Source: Candidatus Peregrinibacteria bacterium CG11_big_fil_rev_8_21_14_0_20_49_14 (GTDB lineage: Bacteria > Patescibacteriota > Gracilibacteria > Peribacterales > Peribacteraceae). Taken from it: a stretch of DNA of 64,000 nucleotides. Positions 56,314 to 63,991 of the stretch are shown here, one piece after another (the first letter of the stretch is position 1; the number at the start of each line of letters is the position of its first letter). The stretch is from assembly GCA_002787035.1 (NCBI GenBank), contig PCVP01000034.1, positions 15,902 through 79,901 on the forward strand, written 5' to 3'. The translations under genes were made by a program, and so were the position numbers. The notes under the pieces were generated by a model, which was not told the origin of the DNA, ran no database searches, and was given only the letters and a program-made list of their open reading frames with translations.

Positions 56314-56949
56314 ATGAGAGACACTTCTGCACAATTTCTCGCCAGAAAGTATCGTGTGACCTCCTGGTTCTACGACATCCTCGACTATCCTTGGGAGCGG
56401 CAGTACCGGCACTGGCGGCCTCTGCTTTTGAATAACCTTGAAGGCGCAGTTTTGGAAGTGGGCGTCGGGACAGGGCGCAACCTCAAGCACTATCCCTCGG
56501 CAGCGCATGTGACAGGGGTCGATCTCAGTCCGGAGATGCTCGTGATCGCAAAGAAAAGAGCGCGACAAGCCAGATGCTCCGTCACACTCGTACAACAGGA
56601 TGCACTGCATTTGCGGGATCTGCAGTCCAGCTATTTTGACTGGTACATCGCGACATTCCTGTACTGCGTGTTGCCAGATCAACTGCAACCGCGTGCGCTC
56701 GAAGAAATGATCCGAGTTCTTAAGCCGGGAGGGAGGTTCAAACTTCTGGAGATCGTGTACTCGAAGGATGCACGTCTCAGACGACGACAGGAGTTCCTTG
56801 CTCCGCTCGTGGAGAAACTTTACGGAGCCCGCTTTGATCGCCGGACACTGGAATACTTGCGAGAGAAAGACAACATCGAGATCGTGAGCACGCGCTTTCT
56901 GAAAGCGGATACGTACCTTCTCATTGAAGGGCGCAGGAAGTCGGCTTGA
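56314..56949 (+). CDS. Class I SAM-dependent methyltransferase
   Basis: Motif I is VLEVGVGTGRNL and motif II is LVQQDALHL. Post-I/III regions include VLKPGGRFKLLE. The protein is 211 aa. Confidence 0.85.
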   Translation: MRDTSAQFLARKYRVTSWFYDILDYPWERQYRHWRPLLLNNLEGAVLEVGVGTGRNLKHYPSAAHVTGVDLSPEMLVIAKKRARQARCSVTLVQQDALHLRDLQSSYFDWYIATFLYCVLPDQLQPRALEEMIRVLKPGGRFKLLEIVYSKDARLRRRQEFLAPLVEKLYGARFDRRTLEYLREKDNIEIVSTRFLKADTYLLIEGRRKSA

Positions 56950-57006
56950 GAGTGGCAAAGGACAATCGGTCGTGACTCAATGGGGCATACTCGGTACTCT
57001 GTGGAC

Positions 57007-57657
57007 ATGGAAAAAGTTTGGTATATCTCCCACATCGATATCTTCGAGGGCATCCCCGACATGGAGATCATGCAGATCGCCGAGAGGGTGCAGGATCACC
57101 GCTGTACCTCACCCATGCACCTCTACAGTCCACATGATGGATTGGATCGCAATGTTTTCCTGCTCAAAGAAGGAGAAGTTGTTCTGTATCACTCCCGCGA
57201 CGGGAAGCGCACGATTTTCGATGTACTCGGCCCCGGGAGCCTCTTTGGAAACTTCCTGCCCAATGCAGAGGGGGCAACTCACTATGCCGAGGCGCTGCCG
57301 GGAAGCCGCATCTGCATTTTAACGCCAGAAGATTTTCAGAAAGTCGTTGCGAAGCACCCGGAAGTTCTGACGCGACTCCTGCAAAAACTCTCGTCGCGGC
57401 TCCACGACTACGAGCAGAAGCTGAAACTCGATACTGGCAGTGCTTTGGAAAAAGTCCTTGGTGAGCTTCGCAGATACAGCAGGAAGAAGCGCAACCCTTT
57501 CGCAATACTTTCTAAAGATGCGCCACTTGCGCTTTCGCACGAGAAAATAGGCGAATTGACCGGCCTCAACCGCGTCACCGTCACCCGCACGATCAAGTTA
57601 CTGAAACTACAGGGAGACATCGAAGTAGATGATAAGGGACGTATTACTCTCAAGTGA
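57007..57657 (+). CDS. Crp/Fnr-family transcriptional regulator
   Basis: Start trimmed to MEKVWYISHIDIFEG. It has a cNMP-binding-like beta-roll (VFLLKEGEVVLYH...GPGSLFG) and a C-terminal HTH (SHEKIGELTGLNRVTVTRTIKLL). Confidence 0.85.
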   Translation: MEKVWYISHIDIFEGIPDMEIMQIAERVQDHRCTSPMHLYSPHDGLDRNVFLLKEGEVVLYHSRDGKRTIFDVLGPGSLFGNFLPNAEGATHYAEALPGSRICILTPEDFQKVVAKHPEVLTRLLQKLSSRLHDYEQKLKLDTGSALEKVLGELRRYSRKKRNPFAILSKDAPLALSHEKIGELTGLNRVTVTRTIKLLKLQGDIEVDDKGRITLK

Positions 57658-57741
57658 GCCGAGAAAACGCTGTAGCGTAGGCTACTGAGCGTGGGAAGAA
57701 AGCTCGGTACAGTTTCGCCATATCTTTCCCCATTTCTTCTT

Positions 57742-58272
57742 ATGATCCGCAAAATATTCTCTCTGCTCCTCGGTGCGACCGTTCTTGTACCCTCCTTTGC
57801 TTTTGCCGCATCGGATTCCATGATGATGGAAAACGACTCCATGATGTCCGGTGAGCACATGGGCATGATGATGACACACGGACTCGATGCATCGTGTGGT
57901 AGTCTCAGGAAACTCTCCACCGATGAAAAGGCACAGATGCTGACAGACATCGGTCATAACATGGATGCCGGAGCGCTGCGACAAGTCTATCGCTGCCTTT
58001 TCACAGGTGCTGCGAAAAAGCGCATCGCGCGTATCACCGACAATGCACTGAAGCTCGATCCGAAGAAGCCGGAGATGGTGTACTACATTCCGTCCACTCA
58101 ACAGTTCTTTGTGACCTGCACGGGCATGAAGACCGTCGCCTACGTCGTTCAGGGAAAGGACGTCACGAATCCGAAGCAGTACTTTGAAAAACATCATTCT
58201 GAATTCGCGGAGAGCGCAACGATGGCACGGATGATGTTCGAGGACATGATGAAGACGCAGATGATGAAGTAA
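57742..58272 (+). CDS. Secreted Met-rich protein
   Basis: Start trimmed to MIRKIFSLLLGATVLVPSFAFA, a signal peptide. The mature N-terminus reads SDSMMMENDSMMSGEHMGMMMTHG, and the C-terminus ends MARMMFEDMMKTQMMK. Confidence 0.65.
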   Translation: MIRKIFSLLLGATVLVPSFAFAASDSMMMENDSMMSGEHMGMMMTHGLDASCGSLRKLSTDEKAQMLTDIGHNMDAGALRQVYRCLFTGAAKKRIARITDNALKLDPKKPEMVYYIPSTQQFFVTCTGMKTVAYVVQGKDVTNPKQYFEKHHSEFAESATMARMMFEDMMKTQMMK

Positions 58273-58305
58273 CTCCTTTCCGTATTTCTTTACTCCTGTA
58301 TCGCT

Positions 58306-63013: not shown

Positions 63014-63016
63014 AGA

Positions 63017-63523
63017 TCAGCGGAAGGTACGACCGATGCTTTTTGCGGTCAGCATGATGAATAAAACTGAAAGGACTATGATTGCCCACACGATGTACCA
63101 GCGGTAATCGAGGAGCGCGAAGGCAACGGCACTCCCAATACCAATGAATCCTAGGACACCCACGATGCACGATGAACACGCTGCTGTTGCAAGAAGACCA
63201 GCGAAGGCAGTCCCGACAACACCCGTACTGCCCATGCCGACCATCGATGCCGTATTTGTGTGACAAGCCTTTCCGCATCGTCTGCGTTCAAGTTGGAGAA
63301 TAATGACTAGACTCAGGAGCGACGAAAGCAAAAGGAGGATGGCAACATCCGTCCCTCGAGTGATGGAAAGCTGGAATGCAAGACTATTACCCTGAATGGT
63401 GAGGATGGGAGTCGAGAAGAGAATGAGGAACATGAGCAAGGTGAGACCGAGGAAGAGAAACTTCCTCCTCGTGGAACGGAGTGCTTGGCCAATGCCATTG
63501 ATGATGAGATACAGTGTGTGCAC
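63017..63523 (-). CDS. Four-TM membrane protein with CxxxC and CxxC motifs, function unknown
   Basis: 168 aa. A loop carries RRRCGKACH and a TM carries LLATAACSSCIVGVLG. It is packed between the merF-like gene and merA, with 3-4 nt gaps. Confidence 0.6.
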   Translation of the reverse strand: MHTLYLIINGIGQALRSTRRKFLFLGLTLLMFLILFSTPILTIQGNSLAFQLSITRGTDVAILLLLSSLLSLVIILQLERRRCGKACHTNTASMVGMGSTGVVGTAFAGLLATAACSSCIVGVLGFIGIGSAVAFALLDYRWYIVWAIIVLSVLFIMLTAKSIGRTFR

Positions 63524-63527
63524 GGGA

Positions 63528-63743
63528 TCAGGAATAATGCTTCCACTTCCTGTAGGCGAGGATTGTCACGAGGAAGAGAAGGACGAGCGTAGGCCACAGC
63601 ACATAATCCAGATACGGTGTAAGCGCACTCAAACCAACTGTTCCGAGGGTGACGACAAGGATGGAAGTGAAGCAGCAGATGGCAATTGCGACAGTGCCAA
63701 TGGCAGCCGCAGAGAAACCTTGTTTGGACGGTTGTCGGTTCAT
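63528..63743 (-). CDS. merF: MerF-like two-TM mercury transporter
   Basis: 71 aa. AICCFTSILVVTLGTVGLSALTPYLDYVLWPTL closely follows the MerF pattern as I recall it (CCFTPVLVILLGVVGLSALTGYLDYVLLPAL). The C-terminal second Cys pair is absent. Confidence 0.75.
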   Translation of the reverse strand: MNRQPSKQGFSAAAIGTVAIAICCFTSILVVTLGTVGLSALTPYLDYVLWPTLVLLFLVTILAYRKWKHYS

Positions 63744-63991
63744 CGAGATGGCAGGAGTGCTTCAGCCTCCTGCTCCGTGAGCTTTCCGACGTGCACGGTC
63801 TTGCCGTCACGAATGACGGTGGGCACCGCTTTCACGTCGTGGCTCTTTGCAGGCTCGCAGCACTCATCGCCTTGGCAACGATGCTCGACGACCTTGCAGC
63901 CGCATCCTCGCTTTTCGATGGCGGAGCGCAGTGTCTTGAGAGTTGTCCTGCACAGAGAACAGTCGGCGGAGATGACATCGAAGGTGGTCAT
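63740..63991 (-). CDS. Small thioredoxin/glutaredoxin-like protein (Thioredoxin_3-type)
   Basis: 83 aa with an N-terminal CSLC, extra Cys (GCGC, CQGDECC) and a cis-Pro region (KAVPTVIRDGKTVHVG). An ATGA overlap couples it to the merF-like gene. Confidence 0.7.
   Translation of the reverse strand: MTTFDVISADCSLCRTTLKTLRSAIEKRGCGCKVVEHRCQGDECCEPAKSHDVKAVPTVIRDGKTVHVGKLTEQEAEALLPSR

Follow-up and report, generated by a model that had tools for sequence, protein, structure and literature searches.

We analysed a two-stranded gene block in Candidatus Peregrinibacteria, a group within the Candidate Phyla Radiation (CPR), in which a predicted mercury resistance (mer) operon on the minus strand converges on a set of envelope thiol-redox genes on the plus strand. 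The block lies at positions 56314-63991 of a 64,000-nt stretch of contig PCVP01000034.1 (hereafter the window, meaning the whole stretch that was analysed) and comprises 12 open reading frames (ORFs), of which the plus strand carries eight and the minus strand four (Table 1). A first-pass annotation, made from the window alone, had counted thirteen genes; this was one too many, but the ORFs that it listed and their coordinates were borne out, and most of its gene labels passed when the members were annotated with Pfam and NCBIfam models. The closest named relatives of the contig's proteins are Candidatus Peregrinibacteria. Six loci fetched from public contigs (L001-L006) match the window with 100% identity wherever they overlap it, the identical copies of the stretch include an internal part of a 108.7-kb contig in NCBI assembly GCA_002790955.1, and the window's sequence of MerA, the mercuric reductase, is present on 20 public contigs.

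The first-pass annotation was largely right about this block, but its most striking element, a metal island with no ArsR/SmtB or other classical metalloregulator and a Crp/Fnr-type protein as its only regulator, proved to be an artefact of the window edge, because an arsR gene begins the minus-strand operon just beyond base 64000. In all six identical loci a 100-aa ArsR/SmtB (HTH_5) gene is found 31 nt upstream of the gene for a small thioredoxin-fold (Trx_3) protein, on the same strand and with its stop codon 23 nt past base 64000. The minus strand therefore reads arsR-trx3-merF-orf168-merA, an ArsR-type mer operon, in which orf168 encodes a membrane protein of an unnamed family. Within the window its genes are spaced as tightly as first described (4 nt or less), with a 4-nt overlap followed by gaps of 4 nt and 3 nt. 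Two further absences that had been reported held up: there is no MerR in the window or in the 9 kb beyond it, and no MerP, as no HMA match was found among the island's proteins or the gene calls of L001.

The ArsR protein scores 74.9 bits against NF033788 (cutoff 55), has HTH_5 among its precomputed Pfam matches, and finds its best solved-structure matches in ArsR/SmtB-family regulators, among which are CzrA, NmtR and SmtB, all metal sensors. Cys56 lies in its recognition-helix region and Cys92, Cys96 and Cys97 in a YCQRLCC cluster at the C-terminus, and all of them are kept in lower-identity orthologues; presumably this ligand set resembles CmtR-type sites. The near-palindrome that precedes the gene (ATTGGAATTATAACAT followed by ATGTTATATTTTCAAT) sits between the hexamers TTGCAT and TATATT, with the arsR ATG about 8 nt after the second hexamer, and TTGCAT-N17-TATATT recurs upstream of orthologous arsR in four diverged loci (L094, L093, L097 and L099). 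The whole upstream region has the appearance of an autoregulated promoter-operator without a leader. Control of mer by ArsR-type proteins has been established for Sulfolobus and Streptomyces and is found in approximately 8% of mer operons; in Archaea, Actinobacteria and Bacteroidetes, ArsR is one known substitute for MerR (PMC3466566). Two Cys-bearing ArsR subtypes accompany orf168 and MerA in the loci that we collected, the first with the recognition-helix Cys and C-terminal Cys cluster (L001, L094, L093, L097, L104) and the second with an N-terminal QCA...ICYLLC, directly before MerA (L009, L010, L101, L110, L115, L119, L124, L106, L102, L007). A third, classic ELCVCD type is found in L105 and L111.

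MerA passes the equivalog model TIGR02053 with 509 bits (cutoff 454.45), whereas its 371 bits against the lipoamide (dihydrolipoyl) dehydrogenase model fall below the cutoff of 408.8, and its top PDB matches are the solved mercuric reductases 5x1y, 4ywo and 1zk7. The residues that mark MerA are, in Bacillus RC607 numbering, the CxxxxC, a C-terminal vicinal Cys pair, Tyr264 and Tyr/Phe605 (PMC3466566). The first-pass annotation had named such residues as a check on its label, and all signature residues are present: the redox-active CxxxxC pair Cys42/Cys47 in GGTCVNVGCVPSK, Tyr157, Phe442, which corresponds to Bacillus position 605 and is of archaeal type, and the C-terminal Cys465/Cys466 in SCCV. 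The C-terminal motif SKLSCCV is close to the SRLSCCV of Metallosphaera MerA (entry 4ywo), an enzyme that has been biochemically characterised (PMC4500099). MerA of Peregrinibacteria and other CPR phyla was catalogued in a 2021 survey (PMC8261052), which covered MerA and MerB and not their partner genes; in the published phylogeny CPR MerA is sister to MerA of Thermococci and Archaeoglobi, thermophilic Euryarchaeota (PMC8261052), a placement with which the Phe442 signature fits. We found no description of CPR mer partner genes in the literature. The first-pass view that the gene combination is undescribed thus fails for the minus-strand core, which is a recognisable mer operon with a MerA already reported from Peregrinibacteria (PMC8261052).

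The MerF-type protein passes both NF033565 (79.7 bits, cutoff 50) and PF11431 (E=1.6e-13; 50.8 bits, cutoff 24.3) and matches the solved MerF 2m67 with E=2e-12 over residues 9-64 of 81. Its only cysteines, Cys23/24, form the CC pair of the first transmembrane helix (TM1) in AICCFTS. The Trx_3 protein scores 32.3 bits against PF13192 (cutoff 24.8) and has no PDB sequence match. All homologues encoded after an arsR gene (L092, L094, L096-L099) retain Cys at six of its seven positions, with the first Cys of the CC pair replaced by Ala in L094. Judged from its sequence, the minus strand is probably a functional ArsR-regulated mer operon.

Table 1. Features of the island and of the operon head beyond base 64000. 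Virtual positions continue the numbering of the window past its last base.
Feature	Position	Strand	Basis or remark
32-nt near-palindrome	virtual 64326-64357 (L001 8657-8688)		directly before arsR ATG
arsR	virtual 64023-64325 (L001 8689-8991)	minus	100-aa ArsR/SmtB, outside window
Start of the 31-nt arsR-trx3 spacer, its first 9 nt	63992-64000	minus	
Trx_3 protein, small cytoplasmic, 83 aa, 7 Cys (CxxC, CGC, C, CC)	63740-63991	minus	PF13192
MerF-type Hg(II) transporter, predicted, 71 aa	63528-63743	minus	NF033565, PF11431
orf168, 168 aa, four transmembrane helices	63017-63523	minus	unnamed family
MerA, core-only mercuric reductase, 467 aa, no NmerA domain	61610-63013	minus	TIGR02053
Class I SAM (S-adenosylmethionine)-dependent methyltransferase, 211 aa, UbiE/COQ5-like	56314-56949	plus	PF13649 E=9e-22
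Crp/Fnr-family regulator, 225 aa	56980-57657	plus	PF00027 and PF13545/PF00325
Secreted Met-rich protein, 176 aa from public-gene-call start (ORF opens at 57691)	57742-58272	plus	signal peptide
Thioredoxin-fold lipoprotein, 185 aa, lipobox LSAC, WCPIC	58306-58863	plus	PF00085 E=5e-9
CcdA (DsbD transmembrane-domain family), predicted reducing-equivalent conduit	58860-59561	plus	PF02683
48-aa Cys/Ala/Gly-rich ORF, 8 Cys, putative gene	59606-59752	plus	ORF only
Intrinsic-terminator-like hairpin and T-tract	59757-59787	plus	9-bp stem, 7 GC pairs
Lipoprotein fusion, TlpA/ResA-like thioredoxin domain (WCPFC) and DUF3179 (YCPLC)	59786-61192	plus	PF11376, Redoxin
MerT-like protein, three transmembrane helices, 127 aa (121 aa from ATG 61207)	61189-61572	plus	PF02411 below cutoff

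The orf168 protein has no Pfam or NCBIfam match, and a comparison of 36 diverse family members with Pfam pointed to no consistent family. A word-indexed search returned 11 relatives, and an exhaustive profile search of 1.84 billion representative proteins returned 355 at E<=1e-3 and 285 at E<=1e-10, with nearly all of the 150 matches listed being 140-190 aa long. The family has four transmembrane helices and an invariant CxxC in the third helix region (Cys116/119 in the window). A second Cys pair shifts its position, lying in the C-terminal tail of most members and in the TM2-TM3 loop of the window's subfamily (Cys83 and Cys87 here), and the positive-inside rule would place both positions in the cytoplasm. 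When the AlphaFold2 model of orf168 (pLDDT 82.9) was compared with the PDB using Foldseek, nothing fell below E=1. We also considered Sulfolobus MerI as a possible relative; a literature search on this point yielded nothing usable.

The surroundings of orf168 were read in 37 loci, 34 from a metagenome scan and three fetched earlier, with lineages taken as clusters at 70% identity. A MerA with an SCC[V/I] tail directly adjoins orf168 in 21 of these loci, often overlapping it by 9-12 nt, and the adjacency is seen in 11 of the 15 lineages with readable flanks and in both gene orders. An ArsR gene and a thioredoxin-fold gene almost always lie nearby, the usual operon being ArsR-MerA-orf168 followed by a 177-aa membrane-anchored thioredoxin of CcmG-like type with a WCPTC motif. 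Searched with the island's own proteins (MerC and MerE were not searched for), these operons contain no MerF or MerT-like protein, so that by this search orf168 is their only candidate membrane partner. By analogy, the set ArsR-MerA-orf168-WCPTC thioredoxin maps one-to-one onto merR-merA-merT-merP. The family of membrane proteins to which orf168 belongs had no name before, its usual neighbour is the mercuric reductase gene, and its recognition is new here. In two Logan contigs (L009 9440-10994 and L010 3355-9268) a conserved 146-aa Met-rich membrane protein and a 556-aa HMA-DsbD_2-cupredoxin fusion stand beside MerA-orf168; L010 also has DsbA, an HMA protein and a P-type ATPase, forming a broader metal island round the MerA-orf168 core.

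On the plus strand, the TlpA-DUF3179 lipoprotein scores 290.5 bits against PF11376 (cutoff 27), 69 bits against Redoxin and 65 bits against AhpC-TSA, and has an LSAC lipobox. Among 23 diverse sequences the Tyr, Pro and Leu of its DUF3179 YCPLC motif are invariant and Cys269 and Cys272 nearly so (>=90%), and DUF3179 is known to have UxxC selenoprotein forms (PMC9312934). Its AlphaFold2 model (pLDDT 85.5) has an N-terminal domain similar to ResA, DsbF, StoA and TlpA structures at a TM-score of about 0.8; for the DUF3179 part, the 50 Foldseek matches listed contain only thioredoxin-domain matches. The protein has >5000 homologues, and the fusion is common in CPR and DPANN. CcdA passes PF02683 (58.6 bits, cutoff 27.1, E=7e-16) and has Cys21 in SPCVIP and Cys135 in VPCAGP. 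The cysteines of the thioredoxin lipoprotein are Cys20, Cys103 and Cys106, and the ATGA overlap that was said to couple its gene to ccdA is real; a second ATGA overlap joins the stop of the TlpA-DUF3179 gene to the start of the MerT-like gene. The label MerT-like stands in part: the TM1 CC pair is present (Cys26/27 in ASLCCLSP), but PF02411 is missed narrowly (31.5 bits, gathering cutoff 32.9), the NCBIfam MerT models widely (33 against a cutoff of 150), and the loop holds a single Cys, Cys81, and not two.

Anchoring on DUF3179 in 80 genome loci and counting neighbours within 6 kb, we found CcdA in 23 loci, a cluster joining class I flavoprotein disulfide reductases with VTT/DedA proteins in 16, a 78-aa glutaredoxin in 15 and ArsR in 14. 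TlpA-like redoxins also recur near DUF3179; our clustering merged these with DUF3179 itself. The typical CPR cassette has the order ArsR-Grx-DUF3179-TlpA-CcdA, with Grx standing for glutaredoxin, and the plus-strand block of the window is a variant of this recurrent cassette. Of the 80 loci, 4 have a true MerA no more than 5 kb from DUF3179, whereas by our own rough estimate about 0.1 loci would be expected by chance. The loci with MerA close to DUF3179 are several and independent. Among them, L023 runs ArsR-FMN_red-Grx-TlpA-Zn-ribbon-DUF3179-TlpA-CcdA-MerA on a single strand with only 20 nt between CcdA and MerA. MerA is also close to DUF3179 in L022, where it is split, and in L050. In L009, a Logan assembly outside the 80, MerA-orf168 and Grx-DUF3179-TlpA-CcdA lie within 9 kb of each other, and in a metagenome-assembled genome (MAG) of Telluria sp. 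(L046 2125-6566) merR is followed on the same strand by an 86-aa Met-rich membrane protein and DUF3179, which face merT-merP-merF-merA.

The most direct evidence for linkage of the two blocks comes from L094, where protein identity to the window ranges over 44-90%. There VTT, MerT-like, TlpA-DUF3179, CcdA, thioredoxin lipoprotein, Met-rich protein, Crp and methyltransferase genes adjoin ArsR-Trx3-orf168-MerA, with the two blocks divergent rather than convergent, and MerF and the 48-aa ORF absent. The first-pass annotation had itself proposed that a chance juxtaposition would show as genes not conserved together elsewhere. As the genes do stand together in L094, and MerA stands with DUF3179-TlpA-CcdA in L009 and L023, this test does not refute it.

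DUF3179 also has a recurrent setting outside CPR. In Proteobacteria, Nitrospira and Nitrospina its flanking genes encode a MerA-like reductase that lacks the CC tail and a VTT/DedA protein. DUF3179 stands beside VTT/DedA in L045 603-4788, L061 8349-11543, L053 2642-6212, L034 9848-11731 and L041 9932-11553, with the MerA-like reductase without CC tail also present in L045, L061 and L053. In a CPR locus (L019 13586-15730) the flavoprotein reductase and VTT domain are fused in a single protein of 714 aa. The association of DUF3179, flavoprotein reductase and VTT/DedA spans several phyla. Beyond base 64000 of our own contig (L001 1-9000) a VTT/DedA gene is divergent from arsR, and a glutamate dehydrogenase gene is also found there; the 7 kb past the window also contain genes for a flavoprotein disulfide reductase of 486 aa, which scores under the MerA cutoff, for a protein resembling thioredoxin reductase and for two resembling glutaredoxins. 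The neighbourhood of thiol-redox genes thus extends over roughly twice what the window showed.

The remaining plus-strand genes are less readily placed. The secreted Met-rich protein, with a signal peptide ending AFA/AS, 11% Met and the tracts MMMENDSMMSGEHMGMMM and MARMMFEDMMKTQMMK, has no Pfam, NCBIfam or PDB match, and its sole homologue is in L094 (49% identity). We take its Met tracts to resemble Cu(I)-binding Met motifs. The Crp/Fnr-family protein has only Cys42 and Cys112 and no FNR-type Cys cluster, and it scores far below the cutoffs of NCBIfam equivalogs. Crp homologues occur within 10 kb of DUF3179 in 7 of the 80 genome loci, including the CPR locus L037 (100 bits). Matches to the CRP (TGTGA-N6-TCACA) and FNR (TTGAT-N4-ATCAA) consensus sites were at chance level, with none in the island's intergenic regions. 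The methyltransferase is next to the Crp gene in L094 as well (85% identity) and was not found in other DUF3179 or MerA loci; the possibility that it is ArsM was rejected, since its score is far below the cutoff, as for all NCBIfam equivalogs, and it has only two Cys.

The first-pass annotation had also described a Cys-rich peptide with its own terminator. The hairpin is real (59757-59777, after the 48-aa ORF), and its T-tract overlaps the TlpA-DUF3179 start codon. The peptide, however, is a candidate gene without a homologue in diverged relatives: it has no Pfam or NCBIfam match and no metallothionein family match, it is confined to 100%-identical copies of the same contig, and in L094, the nearest rearranged relative, it is absent, with a gap of 97 nt between CcdA and TlpA. 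The region 59562-59800 folds as RNA with -93.9 kcal/mol (z=-3.4 against shuffled controls), forming a long imperfect hairpin that spans the 48-aa ORF and is followed by the terminator hairpin; it has no Rfam match. The Cys codon UGC is the reverse complement of the Ala codon GCA, and for this reason a GC-rich hairpin may by itself yield a Cys/Ala-rich ORF. The absence of diverged homologues and the strongly structured RNA together make the ORF doubtful as a gene, and it may be a by-product of a structured RNA that could act as a regulatory or processing element. Capture of metal in the periplasm, which the first-pass annotation ascribed to the Met-rich and Cys-rich products, is a putative function at most.

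Small Cys/His-rich ORFs that are not homologous to this one recur beside DUF3179 in other CPR loci. In five MAG loci, ORFs of 52-79 aa with the pattern C-x-A-C-x-C-P-C-[DE]-x-H-K-x-H-x-H are found within approximately 700 nt downstream of DUF3179 (L018 11145-11306; L024 2354-2512; L027 10849-11088; L029 1657-1827; L071 10985-11143). Three of these loci are labelled CPR and two Gammaproteobacteria, and the ORFs belong to no Pfam family; they resemble a family of metallothionein-like peptides that is as yet undescribed. L021, L022, L009 and L023 contain further small ORFs rich in Cys. Elsewhere in the window, at 38185-40984 on the plus strand, a thioredoxin lipoprotein with a long Met/Glu-rich linker is followed by a 610-aa fusion of CcdA-like, Redoxin and Thioredoxin_10 domains; the genome therefore has at least two CcdA-type pathways. 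A paralogue of the MerT-like protein (53659-54033, plus strand; 124 aa, three transmembrane helices, CC, PF02411 24.4 bits) is 65% identical to the island copy and follows genes for a TRAM/tRNA-U5 methyltransferase and a SPOUT methyltransferase. On an unrelated 1.5-Mb CPR contig (L126) a TRAM/tRNA-U5 methyltransferase gene is likewise found about 5 kb upstream of a MerT-like homologue. Conservation of the MerT-like family is unusually high for CPR proteins.

The island has the highest GC content in the window (53.8% versus 49.6%) and the largest tetranucleotide deviation, with the left composition boundary, near 56.2 kb, being the only sharp one. Neither tRNA genes nor Rfam families were found within the window, giving no clue to an integration site or riboswitch; no sigma-70 consensus promoter was found in the island, and no integrase or transposase families among the gene calls of the adjoining 9 kb. 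It is mainly the MerA phylogeny in the literature that supports a horizontal origin.

That the block combines mercury-type functions (MerA, MerF, and CC and CxxC membrane proteins) with supply of reductant to the envelope (CcdA, thioredoxin, TlpA), as first proposed, is supported. We read the two strands as parts of one cysteine-pair relay from the cell surface to MerA, made of an ArsR-controlled mer operon of CPR/archaeal type and an envelope thiol-redox cassette, and we judge the odds to be tilted slightly in favour of this integrated reading. The gene identities, the catalytic and ligand residues, the operon spacing, the conserved promoter and palindrome, and the co-localisation across lineages described above are observed; we infer that Hg(II) is the ligand, in which direction it is handed over, and that the two strands are functionally coupled.

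Under this relay, ArsR would sit on the palindrome between the -35 and -10 elements and repress its own operon until Hg(II), bound by Cys56 and the C-terminal Cys92/96/97, caused its release. Hg(II) would cross the membrane via the MerF CC pair and the membrane CxxC of orf168 to reach the cytoplasmic pair of orf168. Because MerA lacks NmerA and MerF lacks a cytoplasmic CC pair, the 7-Cys Trx_3 protein may supply a hand-over step, and Hg(II) could be passed on through it. From there Hg(II) would move to the C-terminal Cys465/466 of MerA, then to Cys42/47 and flavin adenine dinucleotide (FAD), and leave as Hg(0). On the outer side, CcdA would carry cytoplasmic reducing power to the thioredoxin lipoprotein and the TlpA domain, which would keep the surface-exposed DUF3179 CxxC as thiols able to bind a thiophilic ligand, while the CC-bearing MerT-like membrane protein would be translationally coupled to TlpA-DUF3179. 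The closest mechanistic precedent may be the reduction of the Sco copper chaperone by TlpA, a system whose structures are among the fold matches.

Several observations weigh against the relay. To our knowledge, no CPR MerA has been assayed. In 76 of the 80 DUF3179 loci there is no MerA within 10 kb. Plasmid MerF (81 aa) has a second vicinal pair, Cys71/72; no second, C-terminal CC pair was found in the window's MerF, which ends 5 residues past the aligned core. The MerT-like family is very widespread in CPR, with 1369 homologue clusters, 64-88% identity among the 120 best, and Peregrinibacteria, Moraniibacteriota and Kaiserbacteria among the lineages named; elsewhere it is found next to MsrB (L128), Lgt/flavoprotein reductase or unrelated genes (L127), and because of this spread over varied contexts it is no specific marker of Hg. 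The plus-strand block has an internal terminator-like hairpin and its own Crp-type regulator. Composition does not mark off a compact island, as high GC runs at least 9 kb past the window, over glutamate dehydrogenase, glycogen synthase and other genes. Finally, four informative orf168 lineages (L007/L109, L102, L118 and L097) have ArsR and/or a thioredoxin-fold gene and no MerA, which is odd for a dedicated Hg(II) importer and therefore keeps an electron-relay function of orf168 in play.

The most serious rival, which we consider unlikely, is that the two strands are unrelated neighbours, a genuine ArsR mer operon beside a housekeeping cassette for envelope thiol maintenance under a Crp-type regulator. 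The cassette would then serve the repair of surface Cys and Met, as CcdA-Etrx-MsrAB does in Streptococcus pneumoniae, with no role in the handling of mercury. This would account for the 76 MerA-less DUF3179 loci, for the breadth of the MerT-like family (1369 clusters, with MsrB beside it in L128 and an unrelated context in L127), for the second pair of thioredoxin lipoprotein and CcdA fusion at 38185-40984 and for the separate Crp regulator and terminator of the plus-strand block, and it would agree with the resemblance of the TlpA domain to Etrx1/2, ResA and StoA. It sits poorly, however, with L094, where the blocks are still adjacent after an inversion, with L023, where a DUF3179 cassette ends in MerA, and with the presence of DUF3179 beside mer genes in L009, L022, L046 and L050; moreover, the ArsR regulators (14 of the 80 loci) and small Cys/His-rich peptides of other CPR DUF3179 cassettes point to metal sensing rather than protein repair.

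A second rival, which strikes us as quite improbable, takes another thiophilic metal, most likely Cu(I) or Ag(I), as the ligand of the plus strand, making it a copper-tolerance or copper-delivery module beside the mer operon within a general metal island. TlpA would then keep a metal-binding CxxC reduced, as Bradyrhizobium TlpA does for Sco, and the Met-rich protein would bind Cu(I). The Met tracts of that protein, the TlpA-ScoI mixed-disulfide structures (4txo) among the fold matches, the HMA-DsbD-cupredoxin fusions, HMA proteins and P-type ATPase of related loci (L009, L010 and L102), and the small Met-rich protein that precedes DUF3179 in the Telluria locus are all consistent with such a module. 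Against these, no HMA, CopA, CopZ, CsoR or CopY gene is present in the window or in the 9 kb next to it, homologues of the Met-rich protein are confined to one close relative, and the recurrent neighbours of DUF3179 are flavoprotein disulfide reductases, ArsR and glutaredoxins, not copper genes.

In the weakest rival the relay carries electrons and not mercury: the MerA-like CC tail would reduce the cytoplasmic pair of orf168, in the manner of a high-molecular-weight thioredoxin reductase, and the orf168 CxxC would pass electrons to TlpA-like thioredoxins and DUF3179, making orf168 an analogue of CcdA and CPR MerA not primarily a mercuric reductase. In its favour are the many loci where orf168 is followed by the membrane-anchored WCPTC thioredoxin with no CcdA found nearby, L023, where MerA and CcdA-TlpA occur with no orf168 so that orf168 and CcdA look interchangeable, the MerA-less ArsR-orf168-Redoxin loci, the pairing of DUF3179 elsewhere with MerA-like reductases without CC tail, and the UxxC selenocysteine forms of DUF3179, which are typical of redox catalysts. 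We give it little credence, as MerA passes its equivalog model with the dihydrolipoyl dehydrogenase score below cutoff, it has Tyr157, Phe442 and a C-terminal motif near that of the characterised Metallosphaera enzyme 4ywo (PMC4500099), a MerF passing its own equivalog model is encoded in the same operon, and the regulator is a Cys-rich ArsR/SmtB metalloregulator.

Our integrated reading of one relay from the cell surface to MerA has a bolder extension, which we put forward as tentative and rather doubtful: orf168 would be an unrecognised mer component, a new kind of membrane carrier working through Cys pairs, that replaces MerT and MerP in CPR mer operons together with a membrane-anchored CcmG/TlpA-like thioredoxin, and DUF3179 would be the extracytoplasmic receptor of a cross-phylum relay from a surface CxxC to MerA-family reductases (via CcdA, orf168 or VTT-DedA) that handles Hg(II) or other thiophilic species.

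The island shares features with several known systems and departs from each. Like the archaeal and actinobacterial mer operons (Sulfolobus solfataricus merRHAI, Streptomyces lividans), it has an ArsR/SmtB repressor in place of MerR and a core-only MerA without NmerA and with Phe at Bacillus position 605, but it has no TRASH/MerH chaperone, its place being held by a 7-Cys Trx_3, MerF and orf168. With proteobacterial mer (Tn501/Tn21 merRTPCAD and the merF operon of pMER327/419) it has in common the MerA chemistry, a MerF with TM1 CC and the logic of successive Cys pairs. Unlike those operons, that of the window lacks MerR, MerP, MerD, MerC, MerE, NmerA and the C-terminal CC of MerF, and its MerT-like protein falls short of the family cutoff and has no Cys pair in the loop; in the CPR relatives of the operon, the places of MerT and MerP are taken by orf168 and a thioredoxin of TlpA/CcmG-like type.

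The plus strand resembles CcdA pathways (Bacillus CcdA-ResA/StoA, S. pneumoniae CcdA-Etrx-MsrAB, Bradyrhizobium TlpA-ScoI) in its two-Cys CcdA, its anchored WCxxC thioredoxins, a TlpA fold with TM-score of about 0.8 and a client protein with a CxxC to keep reduced. It differs in that the client is DUF3179 fused to TlpA, that the cluster contains no genes for cytochrome c, Sco or Msr, and that ArsR regulators and flavoprotein disulfide reductases accompany the cassette. Salmonella ScsABCD, in which a DsbD-like conduit and periplasmic thioredoxin-like proteins serve tolerance to thiophilic metals, presumably embodies the same concept as the island; the comparison is one of concept and not of sequence, and the island, unlike ScsABCD, has no ScsA or ScsC and occurs together with MerA and ArsR.

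Few forms of metal detoxification are understood as well as mercury resistance, but its transport and hand-over are known almost only from Proteobacteria and Firmicutes. The locus and its relatives suggest that the same task can be solved in another way, with MerR, MerT and MerP replaced by ArsR, a new CxxC protein with four transmembrane helices, and proteins of thioredoxin fold. MerA in Peregrinibacteria was already known; the MerA-associated membrane family orf168 and the first functional context for DUF3179 are new here. For DUF3179, the ties to MerA-like reductases, ArsR, glutaredoxins, CcdA and VTT/DedA provide a first contextual handle. Were the electron-relay account of orf168 true, CPR MerA would be mis-assigned in merA-based surveys of mercury cycling. 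If instead the relay to MerA is true, it would add a new class of transporter to mer biology and change how CPR sequences in such surveys are read.

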